DNA of 64,000 nt, taken from NCBI RefSeq assembly GCF_964204645.1, contig NC_134032.1, forward strand, positions 8,420,275 to 8,484,274, in the 5' to 3' direction. A model generated the notes under the pieces. That model saw only the letters and a program-made list of their open reading frames with translations. It was not told the origin of the DNA and did no database searches. Made by a program: the position numbers and the translations under genes. This document shows, piece after piece, positions 7,180-18,500 of this stretch (position 1 is the first letter of the stretch; each line of letters begins with the position of its first letter). The stretch is from Tubulanus polymorphus. Lineage: Eukaryota; Animalia; Nemertea.

Positions 7180-7674
7180 GGCCGACGAGATGCTATCGAT
7201 TTTTAACCCGGAAGTCATAGATTATTCATTTTATGACGGATGGCTCCGATAATATCCACATTCAGGTATCAATGATGAATAGATAGTGGGTGGCTCCGAT
7301 CATATTCGGAATAGGTTAAGTCCTCGAGCTTTTCTTTTTCTGAGCTTTTTTTTAGTACCAGATCATCGACCTCGACACTAATATTATCAAGCCGCATATT
7401 CCTGCATGCTGGAATACACACCAGGTTTTTCAGAGAGACTGAAACAATTCTACTATTCAGTCTCATTATGTTCAAGAGAACGCAATGCAAGCAACCATGG
7501 AACTCGGAATAGTACTATGAAGCAACGAAGTGTTCGTACTTTCTACGAGCGATCACGGGATTGCTCGTATGTAACTTTGAACTTTCAACTATCGATGTCA
7601 GAACTTTAACTTTTAACTATCGATGTCAGCACCGCCAGTATTCGTGGTGTATGTGACATGCAGTGTTTATCAGC

Positions 7675-8754
7675 ATGAATTATAGTGCGACGACCACAGT
7701 AGCTGAAACTACCGTAGACTGTAATCGACCGTACGTTTTCAAAAACGTGCTTCTCGTCAGCGTAAAACTAGCGGGCGCTCTACCGATCAGTATCGTCGGC
7801 ATCATTCTGAATACGTTCAGTATTCTCATCATACGTCGCCAGTCGTCTGATCACAACTCGTTGTACCTGTTAAGCTGTCTCGCACTGGCCGATATACTCT
7901 TCCTTGTTTTCAACACGATTCAGGAACCGTTGCGTTTCGTCGTGTCCTGGTTCACGCAAGGAACTCACATGTTTTGGTTTCCGTACCTGAGCTGGGGTGT
8001 GCGACCGTGGATCTATAAAACGGCTTGGATTCCGCGATATTCGGCGCAGTTGACGCGCAACTGGATAACCGTGCTGTTAGTTTTAGAACGATGCGTATCT
8101 TTAACTTTTCCATTTTTCGCCAGATCTCACATTACAAAATACAGAATAAAAATCATTGTTTGTTGTATGGTTTTTGGCTTTGGTGTATTATACTCGCCTT
8201 TCGTTATCGGCACACGCGTAAACACTTGGTTCTTTGACGCTTGTAACAATGTTCTCGTAATGGGCATCGGTTCAGCAAAAGGGAAGGTACGATCGGGCTT
8301 CTTCCGTGCTTTCAAATGGTTTGACCAATTCATCGCTGCATTAATTAAAGAATTATTGCCGGCAATTTTACTAATGATTTTCAATTGCTACCTGATATGG
8401 ATTCTTCGTAAACTGACGGCGAAAAGAAAAGAAATGACTGGCGAAAGAAATATATCGCGTCTCGACGTGAAAGCTATCAAAATTGCTATAGCTATTGTCG
8501 TTCTATTTGTCGTCTGCGAACTACCGCCATCTTATCGATCTATCTATGAATTCCTAGCCCGTTTTATAAACCTTCCAAGAATTTGGCAATCCGGCGACGC
8601 GGTATACATCACTCAAATGATGTTCGACAACCTTTTACCAACTTTGAACTCGTCGGTAAATTTCTTTATCTATTACGTGGCCAACGATCATTTTAGAGCT
8701 ACCGCTAAAGAGCTGATTCTGAAATGTCGCTTTTGCCGACGAAAGGCGGAATGA
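7675..8754 (+). CDS. Single-exon FMRFamide-receptor/sex-peptide-receptor (Srw)-like class A GPCR
   Basis: Intact 7TM ORF from ATG 7675 (MNYS, N-glycosylation sequon): GIILNTFS, LALAD, LTRNWITVLLVLER, FVVCELP, LNSSVNFFIYYVANDHFR. Clear paralog of the gene at 4982. Confidence 0.9.
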   Translation: MNYSATTTVAETTVDCNRPYVFKNVLLVSVKLAGALPISIVGIILNTFSILIIRRQSSDHNSLYLLSCLALADILFLVFNTIQEPLRFVVSWFTQGTHMFWFPYLSWGVRPWIYKTAWIPRYSAQLTRNWITVLLVLERCVSLTFPFFARSHITKYRIKIIVCCMVFGFGVLYSPFVIGTRVNTWFFDACNNVLVMGIGSAKGKVRSGFFRAFKWFDQFIAALIKELLPAILLMIFNCYLIWILRKLTAKRKEMTGERNISRLDVKAIKIAIAIVVLFVVCELPPSYRSIYEFLARFINLPRIWQSGDAVYITQMMFDNLLPTLNSSVNFFIYYVANDHFRATAKELILKCRFCRRKAE

Positions 8755-9354: not shown

Positions 9355-9530
9355 CCATGACACGATCGTTGTGGATCTGTGTGCTGGCCACAAATGCACA
9401 CAGATCACAGTACCCACAGCTTTGATATAACCATTCTATTATCTAGTGTGTTTCTCCCAGCACATCCTCCCCCGGCAGGGATTCGAACCTGATGGCCACG
9501 GTACTCGTGCCGTGGCTGCGTGTAGCGATG
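9355..9530 (-). mobile_element. tRNA-derived SINE fragment with internal hairpin
   Basis: Reverse B-box GGGATTCGAACC at ~9478. Hairpin GATCTGTGTG-ctggccacaaatg-CACACAGATC. Related pieces at ~21615-21730 and, in forward orientation, ~46705-46795. Confidence 0.55.
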
Positions 9531-10240
9531 AGTGGGTGTGATTCCGGCGTTTGTGGTGACATCAAAAGATTCGTGGTGAATTCACGCGCAATGACATCAT
9601 TGGCAATGAAACTGTGAATGACGTGCATAGCCTGCCATAGAAATCCTGTGCAAGATATTTATATATCTGTCTTTTTCTCCATTCTAAAGGTCCCTTGGTT
9701 TGCCCGGTTGGCCACGTAAGCTTCGGCTGGAGGCAATCAAACCCTGGTAAGTGAGGTTGCTATTTCGCTCAAAGTATCGACGATAAATGGCGACATTGCA
9801 GGAGTCCACACGGTACGGCGGTGTACTGAACTGTGCGGACGTACTTTCGGCGCGCTCCTTGAATTACTTAAACGACCGTCAAGGTAAATTTTCACATTTC
9901 ACTTACAAACATTATCCAAGGAAACTATTTTTTTCTACCTTAGATCTATTATATTCCGTTGCCGTTTTTATGCGTTTAGCCCGTATTAGCTGAGAATTTA
10001 GTATTAATTATTCGGCCACGACAGACACTAAAAACTAGCTTATATCAAACGAATTAACATTGCATAGTCGACAAAGACTAATCGCACCGGTTGATGACAA
10101 ACGAACTAACGTGCGTAAGGCCTAGATTAGTTTAATTCTTTGCGTCCAGTTAATCCCGTTTCTATATATTGAAACTTAACCGATTTGTTTTTCTTTTTCA
10201 CCAACAAAATCTGTGTGATATTCGGTGAGACCTGGAGAAA

Positions 10241-11025
10241 ATGGCGGGAAGACAAAGTGTTTCACCCCCTAACAAGAAGCAGAAGACTGCAGCATCAAAT
10301 CGTCCGAATCGCCAGAATCATAAATCGACTGAGGAAACGGCATCACGTGTGGAAGCAGACAATGGAATATCGTCAAAACTTGATGCGATTCTTTCCCAGC
10401 TTTCGAAATTAGAGCTTCTAGACGACTTGCAGAGGGACATGACCGAAGTTAAACAATCGCTTGAATTTTGCCACCAGGACGTATTACAACTAAAGAGTGA
10501 AAACGAACAACTTAGAAGCAAAGTTCGCGATTTAGAGAAAGTCGTCGCTGATCAGGACGCAATTATCAAATCGGACCATGAACTACTCCTAGATCAGCAA
10601 TGGCGTAGCATGCGCGATAATTTGATCTTTTACGGCGTCGAGGAATCCGAAAATGAGAATACCGAGGACTTAATTAAAGGCTTTTGCGAGAAAGACCTTA
10701 AGTTACCGAAGACGACCGTGGACTCATTCAAATTCGCGCGAACACATCGCCTTGGACGAAGGAAAAACGAACACAAAAAACCGCGCCCAATTGTTGCAAA
10801 ATTCGAGTTCTTCAAAGATCGTGAACTGGTACGTTCAGTTGCGAAAAATCTCGCAGCTCGTCTTTAGGACTGAATGAACAGGTGCCTGAGGAATGGGCGG
10901 CGAGACGACGCGAAAAGCTACCCGAGCTGAGAGCCGCGAAAGCGAACGGAAAACAAGCTTTCTTTGTACGGGACAAACTCGTTATCCGCGAAAACCGTGA
11001 CCGCGTACCGATGGACAGCCACTAG
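10241..11025 (+). CDS. LINE ORF1p (coiled coil + RRM + CTD, L1/Transposase_22 type) with a 1-nt frameshift near 10855
   Basis: 10241-10867 encodes a coiled coil, RSMRDNLIFYGVEE, RTHRLG and PRPIVAKF. The expected C-terminal part (LGLNEQVPEEWAARRREKLPELRAAKANGKQAFFVRDKLVI) continues in the -1 frame to TAG 11023-11025. Confidence 0.85.
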
Positions 11026-14000
11026 GAACCAGCGGAGGGACTTTGCGTACAATTCGTAGACCGGACTGTCCTTGTATCTCGAAGTTGTTGTTATGTTATA
11101 GAATTTGTAAATAGTGTAAATTTATGTGACAGTTATCCAAATGTAAATAGAGATATCGTTGGCTCGCATGTAAATTCTCATACGGTAGATACATACCCTG
11201 ATGTAAATAGTAACAATCATGTACCTGATGTAACTCCTAACAATTTCATTTCTGATGTAAATAAGCGAAATATTAACACTTCTGATTTAAATAAGCAAAA
11301 TGTAACTAGTACAGCAAACGCAGCAAACATAAGTGAAATTCCTTGTATCAAATCATCATTAAAGTTTTCTACGCTGAATGTATGTGGCCTTATAGCTAAA
11401 CTCGATATCCCAGAATTCTGTGAATTTATTAGCAATAATGACATCACATGTCTAACTGAAACTCACTTAGATGATTTAGACGGTAATTTAGGTTGTAGCT
11501 TGCCCGCCTCCCATATGGCGCACTTTAAAAATAGGAAAAAGTTTTCAAAAAAAGGATCAGGTGGCGTCGGTATCATATATAGGAAGTTTATGAAAAATAA
11601 AATAAAACCAATTTCGACTGACTCTCAGTTTGTATCTTGGTATTTATTAGATAAAGATTTATTTAATCGCGACAAACATGTACTTTTAGGTGTAATTTAT
11701 ATTCCTCCAGAAAATAGTCGTTATTATTCAGAAATAGCTATCAGAGAAATTGAAATAGAGTTATTGCAATTGAAAGTTGAGTATGATTTCAATGTGTTAA
11801 TTTCTGGTGACTTTAATGCTCACACCGCTTGTATGCCAGACTTTTTGGAACCTGATAATCAGATAATTCAAGATGATAACTTAGACCCTATTGTTGACTC
11901 ATTGATTAATTTAGGCGTTCCCACTACTAGAAATAATCAGGACAAAAGAAAGAATAATACAGGCTATCAACTAATAGATTTGTGTAAGAACCATTCATTA
12001 ATTATCCTCAATGGCAGATGTGGCAATGATCAGACAGGTAATTATACTTTTAGGAACACTAGTGTCGTCGATTATTTTGTGTGTGATTTAGAACTGTTTG
12101 GTTATGTTGAGGACTTTGAAATAATGCCTTTTGACCCATTATTATCTGATGGACATAATCCTATTAATCTGTGCGTGTATACGAATTCTAGGGACACCAT
12201 TGCTAGCGATAATGAAAGGGGTAATGAACACGCGAACTTTAAAACTTCAATTAGGTGGGTCAGTACTAGATCAAATCAATTTTTCCTGAATGTAGAATCA
12301 AGATTACGAGATAATGATTTAGATAAGTTACTGTTGGACGGGTTGCAAGATCTAGGAAATCAATCGCCAGATGACATTAATGGACTTACCGATAGATTTG
12401 TATCTTCTTTATTATCAAGTGCTGATGAGTGTAATTTGATGTACCATAGAAAAAGTAGGAAAAGTAATAACTGCAAAAAACCGGTCCGCAACAGATGGTT
12501 TGGCAGGGACTGTAGAGATGCACAGAAGAAATATAATTATATGAAAAAAAGATATAGGGGTTGCCCTACCCTTTCCAATTTTGAATCCCTTAAGAACTCG
12601 TCTAAAAACTATAAAAAGGTCATCCGAGAAAATAAGAAGAAACAAAAGGATGAATTTATTAAGGAATTGAGAGAATGCGAAATTAATAACCCAAAAAAGT
12701 ATTGGTCGATGCTAAACTCTGCGAGCGGAACAAAAAATAATGAGGCTAATATAGATATTGATATTTTTCTTGAACATTTTATGAGATTAAATGATTTGAA
12801 TAATGTTAACAATGAAACCGATGACGGTGATGAGCCCCCAGACGTGGGTGACCATCCTGTCTATGACAATCATATTTTGAACAGTGATATAACCAGTGAT
12901 GAGGTAATTAAGACTATCTCTTTACTCAAAAACAATAAGGCCCCAGGCATTGATGGAATCACGAATGAGCTGTTGGGAGTTAGTCAGTATCCGTTTTTAG
13001 TTGATATATTACAAAAATTATTCAATTTAGTTCTTAAAACAGGATATGTTCCAGAGATGTGGTCTATAGGCGTCATCAAACCCATTTTCAAAAAGAATGG
13101 CGATCCCTCTAATCCTGATAATTATAGAGGTATTACCTTAGTTAGCTGTCTTGGTAAATTATTTACAAGTATCCTAAATCAAAGATTGTCAACATTTCTA
13201 GATACGAATCACATTATAAGTGAAGCCCAGGCTGGCTTTAGATCGAAATATTCCACCATTGATCATATTTACACGCTTAAAACAATCGTAGAGCTGTATC
13301 TTTGTCAGGGAAGAAGACTTTTTTGCGCCTTTGTTGATTTTAAGAAAGCTTTCGACTCGATTTGTAGGGTAAAGTTATGGCGAAAATTAATTGCTAACAA
13401 TGTTAATGGAAACTTTTTCAATGTGGTCAAAAATATGTATAACTCCATAAAATCATGTGTTGAATTAAATGGTTGCACGTCACAATACTTTGCAGCTGAT
13501 AGAGGCTTAAGACAAGGCGAAAATCTCTCACCTATCCTCTTTTCGTTATTCTTAAACGACATTGAAGAATTTTTCATTGATCGTGGAAAACCGACTTTGT
13601 CATTTATAGAAAAACTAAATTTGAATCGTGATCAGGATATTGATACTTTACTGAATTTATTCATAATACTATACGCAGATGATACAGTTATTCTTGCTGA
13701 GGATGAGAAATCTCTTCAGCTACACTTAGATACCTTATTTGAATATTGCGCGGCTAATGGTCTCACTGTTAACTCAGAGAAAACTAAAGTACTAGTATTT
13801 GCGCGAAGTAAATCCCGGATAAAAACGATTTCGAAATTTATGTTTGGTGATCAAGAGTTAGAGGTAGCTGAAGATTATGTTTATCTCGGAGTAAAATTCA
13901 ATTGGAATGGTAACTTTGCTAAGGCAAAAAAGTATCTTTACGATAAAGCTATCAGAGCTATGTTTTCGATCGTTCAAAAAGGCAGACGTTTGAAATTGCC

Positions 14001-14829
14001 CATAGATGTTATGTTTAAATTATTTGATACGTGTGTTGCTCCAATAGCCATGTATGGGTGTGAGATCTGGGGATATGAAAATCTTGATTTATTAGAAAAT
14101 ATTCATTGCTTCTTCTGTAAAATCTTAATGAAAGTGACGAAATACTCTCGCAACTTACAAGTTTTATCAGAGCTAGGACGTTACCCTTTGAATATAGATG
14201 TTAGACGCAGGATGATTAACTTTTGGGTGAAAACAGTATCTGGAAAGCAAACCAAACTTAATTCAATACTCTATAAAATATCTTTAAATTTATTTTTAAG
14301 GGATAAATTTAAGAGCCCTTGGTTATCATATATAAAGAAAACGTTTGATGACTGTGGTTTGTCCTGCATTTGGACGCAGCAATTCATGACTAACAGTAAA
14401 TCTTTTTCAAAACGAATAAAACAGATACTCCGTGACCAGCACCTTCAAGAAACTGTATCTGCCATAAATACTAATCCGATATACACTAACTTTAGGCAAT
14501 ATAAAAATGATATTAGGTTAGAGAAGTATATAATAGAACTTGGTGATGACTTAGGAACTAGTTTATTTGAATTTAGGGTCGGGTCCTATATTTTACCTGT
14601 GAACAAATTTTCAAACCTTCATTTAGACAGAGCCGATAGAATATGCCCCACTTGTAATACTTTAGGTGACGAATCCCATTTTCTGTTTGACTGTACCTTA
14701 CTTAACGAACAACGCAAAAACTTTTTGAATTTGAATACCTTTAATACCCTTGATATTCTGAAAAACCCAACGGTCAACTTAGCTAAATTCATTAAGACCG
14801 GCTTAGATGTTTATAGATCCCTCCAATAG
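11026..14829 (+). CDS. LINE ORF2p: AP endonuclease + reverse transcriptase + C-terminal CCHC; frame open from 11026 with no AUG before the endonuclease
   Basis: Endonuclease motifs LNVCGL (~11375), CLTETH, GDFNAH, VVDY, SDGH. RT motifs YRGITL, FVDFKKAFD, GLRQGENLSP, LYADD, YLG. Later motifs YGCEIWG, ELGRYPL and CPTC...HFLFDC. No stop between 11026 and 14827. First in-frame ATG is at 11515, inside the endonuclease domain. Confidence 0.95.
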   Translation, partial: EPAEGLCVQFVDRTVLVSRSCCYVIEFVNSVNLCDSYPNVNRDIVGSHVNSHTVDTYPDVNSNNHVPDVTPNNFISDVNKRNINTSDLNKQNVTSTANAANISEIPCIKSSLKFSTLNVCGLIAKLDIPEFCEFISNNDITCLTETHLDDLDGNLGCSLPASHMAHFKNRKKFSKKGSGGVGIIYRKFMKNKIKPISTDSQFVSWYLLDKDLFNRDKHVLLGVIYIPPENSRYYSEIAIREIEIELLQLKVEYDFNVLISGDFNAHTACMPDFLEPDNQIIQDDNLDPIVDSLINLGVPTTRNNQDKRKNNTGYQLIDLCKNHSLIILNGRCGNDQTGNYTFRNTSVVDYFVCDLELFGYVEDFEIMPFDPLLSDGHNPINLCVYTNSRDTIASDNERGNEHANFKTSIRWVSTRSNQFFLNVESRLRDNDLDKLLLDGLQDLGNQSPDDINGLTDRFVSSLLSSADECNLMYHRKSRKSNNCKKPVRNRWFGRDCRDAQKKYNYMKKRYRGCPTLSNFESLKNSSKNYKKVIRENKKKQKDEFIKELRECEINNPKKYWSMLNSASGTKNNEANIDIDIFLEHFMRLNDLNNVNNETDDGDEPPDVGDHPVYDNHILNSDITSDEVIKTISLLKNNKAPGIDGITNELLGVSQYPFLVDILQKLFNLVLKTGYVPEMWSIGVIKPIFKKNGDPSNPDNYRGITLVSCLGKLFTSILNQRLSTFLDTNHIISEAQAGFRSKYSTIDHIYTLKTIVELYLCQGRRLFCAFVDFKKAFDSICRVKLWRKLIANNVNGNFFNVVKNMYNSIKSCVELNGCTSQYFAADRGLRQGENLSPILFSLFLNDIEEFFIDRGKPTLSFIEKLNLNRDQDIDTLLNLFIILYADDTVILAEDEKSLQLHLDTLFEYCAANGLTVNSEKTKVLVFARSKSRIKTISKFMFGDQELEVAEDYVYLGVKFNWNGNFAKAKKYLYDKAIRAMFSIVQKGRRLKLPIDVMFKLFDTCVAPIAMYGCEIWGYENLDLLENIHCFFCKILMKVTKYSRNLQVLSELGRYPLNIDVRRRMINFWVKTVSGKQTKLNSILYKISLNLFLRDKFKSPWLSYIKKTFDDCGLSCIWTQQFMTNSKSFSKRIKQILRDQHLQETVSAINTNPIYTNFRQYKNDIRLEKYIIELGDDLGTSLFEFRVGSYILPVNKFSNLHLDRADRICPTCNTLGDESHFLFDCTLLNEQRKNFLNLNTFNTLDILKNPTVNLAKFIKTGLDVYRSLQ

Positions 14830-15334
14830 TATATATAGTATTGTAAATAGTTGATGTATATAATAGTATATATAGTATTGTAAATAGTTGATGTATGTAT
14901 ATATTTCGTTACGTTTTCATTCTCTAAATTTTAATCACTTTAGTCACTTTAGTGTTGTTTTGTAAATATTTGTATATACATGTGTAATAGTTTTTCTCCA
15001 TATACCATGGAAACGGTTGGAGTGTAAATAAATCGTAATCGTAATCGTAACCCCTGGTAAGTGATATCCCGATCCGTCGTTTAGCGCTCGGACACGTATT
15101 TACGATAGATGGCGACAGTAGGCCTATCGCATCATAGACGGCATCAGATTTGAATTTTGATTCGATCTCGGGTTCGAATTTTAGCGACTTCTCAGCGACT
15201 GGTAACATATTCGAGGGTGAATATTGATTCTGTGTGTAGTTAGTGAATTAAAGAATGTAATGTCAGAGGGTGTCATCCACGACAGAAAATAGATAAAAAT
15301 GATGTTAGAAGAAATGCCTGTGTGTGCCCTGCCT

Positions 15335-15359: not shown

Positions 15360-15556
15360 GACTCTGTTCTGGGCCTCCTATCTTCAGCTGTCAACTTCTT
15401 CAAAATGTCATCCTTTCACTGTCCGTATCATTTTCACGATCTCCAAGCCAACGTCCGTTGAATAAGTAAGGATTAAAGTTTCAATGGTAATCTTAAGAAT
15501 TTGAAACTACGTGGCTAAATTACGTCCACGTCGAAAACCTCGATAACATTGGAACC

Positions 15557-18500
15557 ATGTGTGGAAAAAGTATAAAAGCTGAATCACTCGGTAGTTTACG
15601 TGGACGCTACGGTTTCATCTACGTTTCAATAATTGTAATATTTGGATTTATTCCCGGCATCGAACCTTACGCATGCAGCGGAGGCCACGCGTCGACGGAA
15701 TGGCGTTCAACGACCGAGGAATTCGTCGTTGATTGGGATTTGACGCGCGTCTGTCGAAACGCGCGCGAATGCTACGGCGCGAACAACACGTCGACTGACG
15801 AGCCGCAGTTGTGTCCGATATACGTGCAAGAGGGCGACACCGTGCGCGTCGTGACGGCGGATGCGAATTTCGCGACCGATGTCGTTAAAGTCTCGTTGAT
15901 CGATTGGACGTACTGCGCGCTCGGCGCCGACGCTGTGGACGTCTCACGCGCGTCAAATTTTACAATGTCAGGCTTGACGTTTTTGTCCCTCGGCGTAAAC
16001 TATTTCACGCAATCGCCGCAGAGGAATAACGCGCAGTTGTTTTTCTGTAAATTCGGGCTTCGCGTGAAGGTCGTGGTTCGCGCGGAGGATTGTGGCACTG
16101 GAGGGGAGTGTTCGCGCAACGGACGATGCGTCGCCGCGGTCACCGACGCGCAGTTCCGATGTCGATGCGACGCGGGTTTTGTTGGCACTTACTGCACGGA
16201 GTACAACGCGTGCGTCGTGAGTCAACCGTGTCGTAACGACGCGACCTGCACCGATATAAAACTGGGGCCGCTTCTGAAAAACTACACTTGCCACTGCCTG
16301 GTACCTTTCACCGGTAAGTTCTAGAACTCGTAGAAATAGAATAAGGCTTCTAAGGAAGCTCTTGTAAAATCTTTTTATTCTATGACTACATGTTCAAAAT
16401 CTAATGATTTCTACTGAATTCATCAGAGAATTCTTCCAGGACTCTACTGGAAGTTTCCTTTTCAAAAATATTCAGCCTAGTTTATAACAACCTACCACTA
16501 CACAATATTGAAGAAATGAATTTTACCACTGTCAAACTCGAACTGCCACCAGCCCATATACTGGTTCTATCCAGGGTTGAGGTTCAGGCCTGTAGAATTC
16601 ATCAATTTCTACCCTAACCCTGTTTTTCGTATAACTGAACTCTTACGGTGGGCTTAGGTCCCCTCGCGACTTCTTGCAAATTGTTGCTATTGGTTGCTGC
16701 GATGGTCTCATTGAAACCAGACTAAAAGATTGGGTTGAGTGCAACAAACTCGTCAGTGATGGTGTGGGTTGCAACTGGGAGAGAAGGTCGTCTAAAATAG
16801 AACGCATTGCAATTCTGGTTTCACTGGCGATCGCAAGGGCTCTATGATTTGCCAGGTCGGTTCGCATCGTGAAATGTCCCCTGATTCCTGTCAGTTATGT
16901 TGTCAGTTCAAAGAGATGAGTTGTCATTGGACCAGCCTCATTTATTTCAAGACGTTTAAATAGGGCTCAAAATAATGTCGACAAAAATATGAAAATGGCA
17001 CTTTCTGTAAAATGAAGGTAGGCCTACAATTTTGTTGTATGTAATTCTTGAAAATGGCATTTTTCTTGTGTAAAGCGTATCAGTGGCCCAATACCAGCCC
17101 TTATTAAGTGCTGATTATAAGTTAACCCATCCTTAGTTTGAAAAATCTTGGTCTAAGTCTCTCGGATATCATCTGGATCCAGCCCTTGTTGATATTAGTT
17201 CATTAGTTACCCATAGCTCTAGAAAAGTGAAACTTTACGCGGAAGCGCGTGATCCTGATCGCTTTAGATTTTCAGTGAAATAAATTTTTTTCTAGGTACG
17301 AATTGTACGGATATTCGAGGCCAGTGCGCGGCTGGTATTTGTGGACATGGAACTTGTCGGAACATGTCGCAAACATCATTCAAGTGCATCTGTAAAAATG
17401 GCAAGTAATCTTATCGAAAACGAAAACTCAGCACGTATCAAAGAACCAAAGTTTAGATAACCAATAGATTGTATTGTCTAGGATGCGCAATATGTCTTTA
17501 GAAAAATTAAGTTGCTTTGAAAATGTTTGAAAATTAAGATTTGGAAAATGTTGATTAAGGATGTTTGAAAAATTTATTTGGAAGGTCTTTGAAATGAGAC
17601 GCAATTTATTTTGAATGGTTAGAATCTTTACAACGCTGGGTATGTTAGGTGTTTGAAAATGCTTTGGTAAGGTCTTAGAAAATGCTCAGAAAATGTTATT
17701 GAAATGTTATTGAAAATTCTTGGAAAAAATGTGTGGAAATGCTTTGGAATGAATGTTTTCTAGAATGTTGGCTATTGTAAGTCCATTGAAATCTATCTAG
17801 GAAAAGACTATTAAACGCTTTGCAGGGGCTTCCTCTCCAGGGCTTGAAAATGCCTTTTTTGTAAGAATGCATTGAACGTACTGAAAATGTTTAGAAATAA
17901 TAATGCAGAGTAAGAATGTTCAGGAACTCGTTCCAAACAGAAAATGCTTTTAAAGATGCTTGATGAAACTCCTTTAATTTGAGCAAAATGACCGAAACCA
18001 CTTTAAAACTCCTTCAATTTTGAGAAATGGTCAATTTAAGTAGACATAATTTCAGGATGTATTGCCCAATTCGGCGGTTACTGAACTAGAAATGATAGGA
18101 ATTTGCTTAGGCCTAATACAAAACCACCGAATTAATGATTTAATGAGATACCGGTTTAGGAGGAGGAGGAGGAGGAGTCTCATTGTGATGAAATGGATAC
18201 AGATATTTCATATTTTCCTCATTTCAATCTCTTTGAAAACTCCACCCGGGAACGACCGATCTGTAGGGACTTTGCTAATGATGCTCGGGGTGTGGGGCCC
18301 TGGGCCCGGTTCCACAGTCGTGAGTTAAGATTTGACCCCGAGTTAAAACATTGAAAATGAACTAATCTTAACTCGGAGTTAACTCTAACCCACAACTATG
18401 GAACCGGATCCTGATGTTTTTGTCGGTATTTTTCGCTTCCAACGTAGCCGCGCTGAGCGTTATTACCACCGATAATGAAAAATGAAAACGCCGGCGGCGG

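Follow-up and report, generated by a model that had tools for sequence, protein, structure and literature searches.

We analyzed a 64,000-nt stretch of the genome of the nemertean Tubulanus polymorphus (NCBI RefSeq assembly GCF_964204645.1, contig NC_134032.1, forward-strand positions 8,420,275 to 8,484,274), hereafter the window, whose numbering is used throughout. It contains a full-length long interspersed nuclear element (LINE) of 5.3 kb (9755-15051), bracketed by a 13-bp duplication, in which the first and second open reading frames (ORF1 and ORF2) share one frame and are separated by a single TAG stop and a stop-free linker (Table 1). ORF2 encodes an apurinic/apyrimidinic endonuclease (APE; Pfam Exo_endo_phos, PF03372, E 7e-6) and a reverse transcriptase (RT; RVT_1, PF00078, E 2e-35) with its YADD motif at 13672. 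With these two domains, the target-site duplication, a simple-repeat 3′ tail and multiple copies, the element is an APE-type LINE, that is, a retrotransposon without long terminal repeats (non-LTR). Comparison with its relatives makes it likely that this RTEX-like lineage produces its ORF2 enzyme by programmed readthrough of the UAG, as a minor ORF1–linker–ORF2 fusion.

Table 1. Features of the element in the window
Feature	Coordinates	Strand	Remarks
Left target-site duplication	9742-9754	+	13 bp; identical copy at 15052-15064
LINE 5′ untranslated region (UTR)	9755-10240	+	Between duplication and ORF1 ATG; multi-copy read depth
ORF1, L1-type (coiled coil, RNA-recognition motif, C-terminal domain)	10241-11025	+	Sister copies encode 261 aa; window copy frameshifted near 10855
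ORF1 stop TAG plus G, in frame with ORF2	11023-11026	+	Candidate readthrough site
Linker, stop-free, 116 codons	11026-11373	+	No in-frame AUG in the window copy
Purine run, +9 to +15 after the stop	11034-11040	+	Proximal arm of predicted long-range helix
ORF2 body: APE endonuclease, reverse transcriptase, C-terminal cysteine motif	11374-14829	+	RTEX-like
Predicted long-range helix, distal arm	14818-14824	+	9 nt before ORF2 stop
3′ UTR with a short (ATCGTA)n tail at its end	14830-15051	+	Sequence
Right target-site duplication	15052-15064	+	Matches 9742-9754

The RT motifs were compared by eye with five RTEX and four Proto2 references (alignment in supplement file 23 of PMC10294476). CLGKLFTSILN, QAGFR..YSTIDHI, RQGENLSP.LF.L.LND and YADDT match RTEX-10_CGi, and the Proto2-type motifs (NYRPIA, QFGFK, GGVLSP) were not matched; the Proto2 clade was rejected and, on these motifs, the element appears RTEX-like. 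Like the window element, RTEX elements combine an APE and RT ORF2 with a tandem-repeat tail; they are abundant in bivalves (PMC10294476), and the closest named ORF2 relatives found here come from Mytilus. The RTEX ORF1s in PMC3905857 carry an esterase, a feature that is not universal in RTEX; the ORF1 studied here gave no esterase match and has an L1-type RNA-recognition motif (RRM) instead. A profile of ORF1 relatives (A1) matched human L1 ORF1p (PDB 2ykp; E 7e-9, profile positions 67-230), and by this comparison ORF1 is homologous to L1 ORF1p, with a coiled coil, an RRM and a C-terminal domain.

A preliminary description of the locus, made from the sequence alone, had given ORF1 the ending GAC AGC CAC TAG, followed by a frame open to the ORF2 stop that begins with a stop-free linker of about 110 codons. 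We located this ending at 11014-11025, followed by GAA CCA GCG GAG GGA; the frame is open for 1267 codons (11026-14826) up to the TAG at 14827-14829, and 116 codons precede the endonuclease motif LNVCGL at 11374. The linker has no stop in frame, compared with 15 in each of the other two frames, and not one of 20000 dinucleotide shuffles (mean 8.9 stops) was stop-free. Unmentioned in that description was a one-base frameshift near 10855. In the window copy, the 5′ part of ORF1 (ATG at 10241) lies in another frame and stops at 10865-10867, and the C-terminal domain that reaches the TAG lies past the frameshift.

Sister copies were examined in raw DNA reads from another study and in contigs collapsed from them. 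Since read depth is about 240 at the junction and about 9-21 in single-copy flanks, we estimate that the element is present in roughly 10-25 copies. The ORF1 break is missing from most reads (123 reads, depth 142-173) and from all family contigs, and a sister ORF1 (P0121, 261 aa, 99% identical) ends at the same DSH, indicating that ORF1 runs into the TAG in the family. Contigs from four runs cross the stop unaltered, and none of the best 40 of 120 variants, the weakest of which have 17 reads, falls at 11023-11026. Synonymous variants account for 12 of 19 sites in ORF1. In the linker they make up 4 of 5 sites over the first 25 codons and 0 of 8 beyond these; the distal linker drifts in amino acids yet gains no stop among the variants listed. 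Depth is higher over the junction (10934-11130, about 210-250) than over the endonuclease start (11400-11700, about 130-140). This pattern is the reverse of ordinary 5′ truncation and may reflect internally deleted derivatives or divergent subfamilies.

Related families were collected with a query consisting of ORF1 only, so that their selection was independent of the junction. For set A, 80 of 119 metagenome matches were kept; of these 80 and the window, 48 have both the ORF1 C-terminal domain and the endonuclease start. Eight of the 48 were classed by hand as carrying an ORF2 of another clade (weak endonuclease score, different motifs), and three of the eight branch apart with full support. 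In these other-clade LINEs with the same kind of ORF1, ORF2 is never in frame (0/8) and always has an ATG (8/8). By contrast, ORF2 is in frame in 36 of the 40 RTEX-type rows. In 35 of these the ORFs are separated by a single stop, TAG in 33 and TAA in 2, without any in-frame ATG, and the remaining one, L042, has a sense codon at this site. The four rows out of frame come from damaged copies: TAG-G survives in three, and the fourth has lost a junction that is retained in its sister L049. Among the 33 rows left out, 28 were inspected: ten show this kind of junction, in one case with TGA-G, and the others are truncated or decayed copies or elements of other kinds. The phase is retained by the two families with TAA and by L024, which has TGA. 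Removal of 9 sisters or damaged copies left 31 families. In eight matches (L032, L036, L046, L047, L055, L066, L068 and L076), an L1-type ORF1 is fused in frame to an additional C-terminal domain of about 130 aa with a …TRWFGGKHLG… motif, and no RTEX ORF2 follows.

Set B came from one bacterial genome bin (G001, the genome of L084) with animal contigs, which gave 45 ORF1 matches on 43 contigs; 40 regions were analyzed, one more was L084 and two were left out. An RTEX-type endonuclease is present in 33 of the 40 regions, four have no endonuclease and three have one of another clade. A single in-frame TAG was found in 30 of the 33 (29 TAG-G and one divergent TAG-A), and the remaining three copies are frameshifted, with TAG-G or TAG-C at a junction close by. 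A second bin added two in-frame cases among 4 matches, one of them the element with a 542-codon linker described below. Scans of viral contigs found no relatives, a pattern scan of GTDB gave five stretches of which one was real (L084), and a family-wide search had matches in 2 of 380 genomes. The bacterial bins G001 and G371 contain dozens of intact animal LINE contigs, that is, host contamination.

Both sides of the stop are held open in these relatives. ORF1 tails of 0-388 codons remain open right up to the stop, and linkers of 6-1626 nt (up to 542 codons) are stop-free past the TAG. In-frame linker stops number 0 in 381 codons in set A and 0 in 901 in set B, compared with 46 and 123 in 871 codons in the other frames of set B; across both sets, the other frames have 5-14% stops. 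Set B linkers contain 4 in-frame ATGs, against 42 and 12 in the other frames. The longest linker (L158, minus strand; 1626 nt, 542 codons) is cysteine-rich, stop-free and built from in-frame internal duplications; a Pfam search of the long linkers gave nothing credible, a weak phage tail fibre match in L158 being probably spurious. Median endonuclease identity is 35% in set A and 29% in set B. Several set B elements are 65-80% identical to one another and hence not all independent, and a single ancestral junction may have given rise to all of them; what the data show is long retention despite variable tail and linker lengths, not repeated origin.

Taken together, the stop, the following G, phase 0, a linker that is a multiple of three, the lack of linker stops and the scarcity of AUGs hold across about 60 families, as the preliminary description had anticipated for a stop that is conserved and not peculiar to one copy. 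We therefore consider refuted the idea of a copy-specific nonsense mutation in a single-ORF element, or of chance, which retains next to no probability. The window copy is indeed damaged elsewhere, by the ORF1 frameshift, and one relative, L042, has a sense codon at the stop site. The TAG is nevertheless present in the collapsed family contigs, in reads at a depth of about 240 and in the approximately 60 divergent families; L042's sister L058 has TAG, and no intact single protein with ORF1, endonuclease and RT was found among 24 longer ORF1 matches, although this search was a weak one.

Nucleotides next to the stop are conserved as well. Among the 31 families of set A, G directly follows the stop in 30, and a purine occupies +13 in 30 and +14 in all 31; in the relatives, almost every stop is TAG-G and is followed by purines at +10 to +14. 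The first codon encodes D, G, E, A or R (GAC, GGG, GAA, GGA, GAT, GCC, GGC, CGG) while the G and the purines are kept, which argues that constraint acts on the nucleotides. An in-frame UAG followed by G between two ORFs is also the arrangement of type III readthrough, exemplified by Moloney murine leukemia virus (MoMLV). The first 9 nt past the stop agree with the MoMLV motif GGR NGU CAG (PMC13517186) at 4.25 of 8 positions, compared with 2.2 for background, with up to 7 of 8 in L038, L048, L061 and L084 and 3 of 8 in the window element.

Such a context could also be that of a 3′ splice acceptor, in which TAG|G would join ORF2 to an upstream donor and the purine run would serve as an exonic splicing enhancer. 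Acceptors have the consensus YAG|G, and GAGAAG-like runs are similar to splicing enhancers. However, the junctions lack a pyrimidine tract (pyrimidine fraction 0.42 against a background of 0.43 in set A, and 0.44 in set B), and T is found in only 2 of 30 set B elements at each of two positions that are usually T-rich in acceptors. The TAA and TGA variants hold the phase, no CAG version was found, ORF1 tails are open to the stop, and no joint ending at 11026 occurs among the DNA-read joints listed. Splicing is thus highly improbable.

The purine run has a potential partner at the other end of the element. In the window element, 11034-11040 can form 7 Watson-Crick pairs with 14818-14824, about 3.8 kb away; this is the strongest contiguous helix in its whole downstream sequence, and the distal arm is at the same offset from the ORF2 stop in L011 and L117. 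The corresponding predicted helices have 9 Watson-Crick pairs in L022, L044, L117 and L122 and 10-11 pairs in L126, L136 and L011. Their arms are separated by 3.4-4.4 kb, the partner lies at the ORF2 stop or in the 3′ UTR, and several helices start at +9. When positions +7 to +20 were compared with the whole downstream element, the best contiguous helix fell within the 170 nt around the ORF2 stop in 5 of 8 elements (0.4 expected) and in 6 of 17 (0.8 expected). The corresponding counts were 0-2 with swapped queries, 0 for an upstream control, and 0 and 3 for the +40 control. In cognate-versus-swapped permutations of the 8 discovery elements, 0-17 of 20000 did as well. Pairing is kept through compensatory changes at 3 positions between L122 and L126 and at 2 positions between L022 and L044. 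In an initial long-range test with shuffled queries, only 1 of 7 elements stood out. For L125 and L131, of the subgroup in which GGCCGAGG follows the stop, pairing is predicted with a 3′ UTR motif that contains GGCC, at about +42 to +56, and is similar to motifs in the 3′ UTRs of other relatives. If this were an RT-recognition element, pairing could, speculatively, act as a switch between translation and reverse transcription.

These features suggest a mechanism in which most ribosomes would terminate at the UAG, releasing ORF1p, and a few percent would decode it as an amino acid and proceed through the linker into ORF2. Readthrough would thereby set a high ORF1p:ORF2p ratio, and the fusion would tie ORF2p to ORF1p trimers on its own RNA. 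The stimulator would be the predicted helix between the purine run, about 9 nt past the stop, and its complement at the ORF2 stop or in the 3′ UTR; it would sit at the mRNA entry channel of the ribosome during UAG decoding and would favor full-length transcripts. That the pairing of the purine run with the element's own 3′ end switches readthrough on across this animal LINE lineage is a tentative proposal, to which we give slightly less than an even chance. We prefer readthrough because of the phase, the open tails and linkers, the preference for UAG and the start of the helix near +9.

The same phase, open linker and scarcity of AUGs would be equally explained if ORF1p were released at the UAG and the ribosome, by AUG-independent termination-reinitiation or stop-and-carry-on, restarted in frame at a place fixed relative to the stop, making a separate ORF2p while the downstream helix holds it as in SART1. 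ORF2 translation in L1 is reportedly AUG-independent. Reinitiation is documented for SART1 and L1 (PMC5972666, PMC10275272), but after a long ORF it is considered inefficient (PMC3894237). In the relatives, there is no conserved start-like codon after the stop; the 31 families of set A have no in-frame linker ATG and no stop-start overlap in the ORF2 frame, and thus no UAAUG coupling of the SART1 type. The preference for TAG (33/35 in set A, 30/30 in set B) fits misreading of a specific codon better than termination. We regard such a restart as unlikely.

Several observations weigh against readthrough or its proposed stimulator. To our knowledge, LINEs encode no protease, so that the fusion would have to work uncleaved. 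Of 32 families, 11 have one of the type III hexamers (UAGGGV, UAGGUA, UAGGAU); the window element, with UAGGAA, does not. Termination is favored when a purine follows the stop, and type III contexts are weak without structure (PMC13517186). In addition, the local context of a junction in Candida Tca2 resembling that of murine leukemia virus (MuLV) gave no readthrough in a yeast reporter (PMC2194720), and the structure downstream of the SART1 stop serves reinitiation, not readthrough (PMC5972666). No conserved local structure was detected (mean z -0.1 to -0.6 across families, pseudoknots not being modelled explicitly), and the pseudoknot or stable structure that follows an 8-nt spacer in type III signals was not found. 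The preliminary description had likened the junction to the MuLV signal and proposed a local stem, AGGGAC/GTCCTT. The UAG-G and, among relatives, the spacer bear out this likeness, but the window element has no type III hexamer and the local structure is unsupported. Both arms of the stem are present, but the predicted fold of the region is poorer than those of its shuffles (z +0.2 to +1.7); for 11023-11120, 198 of 200 shuffles were as good, and common sister variants at 11070 and 11073 weaken the stem, which we rejected as a signal. Nor did the relatives share a consensus fold, again with pseudoknots not modelled explicitly. A short post-stop hairpin seen by eye in one subclade was likewise discarded: 13 sequences gave no consensus fold, and in the register named for it 28% of cells were paired, no better than shuffles.

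The long-range helix is only 7-11 bp and is not evident in roughly a third of the elements. In set B, the first two narrow-window duplex tests were not significant (2580 and 6647 of 20000), and windows and metric were widened after set B had been seen; later permutations gave 117 and 907 of 20000 for contiguous helices and 123 for a window of -40 to +130. Because of this adjustment and the elements without a good helix, complementarity between the purine run and the ORF2 stop or 3′ UTR is rated as moderately supported.

The linkers also bear on this question. According to the preliminary description, the first in-frame ATG (11515) lies past the catalytic motifs of the endonuclease, and a sense codon at the stop in sister copies, an in-frame AUG in the linker, or linkers that freely gain stops and frameshifts would count against readthrough. 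The position of the first ATG, after LNVCGL and CLTET (11449), is correct for the window copy, which has ATT at 11338-11340, but in 33 of 130 sister reads a different base at 11340 turns this codon into an in-frame ATG, 12 codons before LNVCGL; these reads represent a subfamily about 86% identical in the linker, which may have gained or kept an alternative ORF2 start. In-frame linker ATGs are also present in L120 and L126 (2 of 30 set B relatives). A sense codon occurs in the one relative L042 and not among the variants listed for the family of the window element. Linker stops are absent from the variants listed, but two frameshifting indels occur (19/224 and 9/141 reads); three further linker indels keep the frame.

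This subfamily ATG, the near-cognate ATT in the window copy and the start of ORF2 at such a position in other-clade LINEs would fit internal initiation (IRES-like, that is, resembling an internal ribosome entry site, or near-cognate) close to the endonuclease, with the in-frame stop as a retained ancestral accident. Internal initiation, however, gives no reason for the 187-542 open codons between stop and endonuclease in L130, L126 and L158, for in-phase ORF1 tails or for conserved nucleotides beside the stop, and is very unlikely.

The junction can be compared with those of several known systems. Gammaretroviral gag-pol of MoMLV (UAG, 8-nt purine-rich spacer, pseudoknot; PMC13517186) similarly places UAG-G between a structural and an enzymatic ORF. 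Its pseudoknot begins at base nine past the stop, and a ribosome occupies about 11-12 nt downstream (PMC13517186); the helix predicted here starts at about +9. Unlike in MoMLV, neither a local pseudoknot nor a conserved hairpin was detected, and the element has no protease to process the fusion. The tombusvirus carnation Italian ringspot virus (CIRV) makes its polymerase by readthrough of UAG-G, for which a 3.5-kb pairing of the stop-proximal and 3′-end readthrough elements (PRTE-DRTE) is required (PMC3234231). In CIRV, the proximal element lies in a large stem-loop and the interaction is experimentally proven, although a reporter with a short insert gave a false negative (PMC3234231). In the present case, a genomic retrotransposon, the proximal arm itself occupies +9 to +20 and the pairing is a prediction. 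Candida Tca2 also has an in-frame stop and a purine-rich spacer between gag and pol, but is an LTR element with UGA (PMC2194720). SART1 and mammalian L1 share with the window element a bicistronic LINE RNA and low ORF2 output, and SART1 has structure downstream of the stop (PMC5972666, PMC10275272, PMC3894237); their ORF2 begins at an AUG, in a UAAUG overlap or after a 63-nt spacer, whereas here there is a single in-frame stop and no AUG.

The sole precedent for non-LTR readthrough that we found is a one-sentence suggestion for Group 3 elements of Paramecium tetraurelia, based on consensus sequences, in which ORF1 and ORF2 share one frame (PMC5405496). Those elements form a ciliate-specific clade with a zinc-finger ORF1, and the accessible text describes no cis-element (PMC5405496); the present lineage belongs to animals and combines UAG-G with a purine run and a predicted pairing to the 3′ end. 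The full-text literature searched contained no account of readthrough or long-range pairing for RTEX or other animal LINEs, nor of an in-frame stop for RTEX; Repbase Reports and most subscription journals, which lie outside that corpus, may mention the in-frame stop.

The way in which LINEs translate ORF2 has long been an open question (PMC3894237), to which termination-reinitiation is the documented answer. With a conserved gag-pol-like in-frame UAG in about 60 families and internal controls, this lineage would offer a different one. If the pairing is real, production of the enzyme would be linked to the 3′ end, the part later copied, which would explain both stoichiometry and cis-preference; the element would have a tombusvirus-style checkpoint for full-length RNA, providing a sequence-level mechanism for cis-preference in a retrotransposon. 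Gene predictors clip or splice across these junctions, and ORF2 starts of this clade are therefore probably mis-annotated; four Mytilus gene predictions join ORF1 to endonuclease sequence.

The LINE 5′ UTR contains three upstream ATGs (9787, 9970 and 10094). Read depth is raised (about 130) at 9673-9769 around the left target site, suggesting that the LINE landed in another repeat, which may be a target that it prefers. Farther upstream, 9380-9575 is a very high-copy repeat (depth about 2000) with GTTCGAATCC on the minus strand near 9478-9487, which we take to be a B-box-like motif. ARAGORN found no tRNA in this repeat, which is probably a tRNA-derived SINE (short interspersed nuclear element) or a MITE (miniature inverted-repeat transposable element). 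By eye, the flanking host ORFs include an intronless ORF resembling a G-protein-coupled receptor (7657-8754) and an ORF with cysteine repeats like those of epidermal growth factor (15497-16324).

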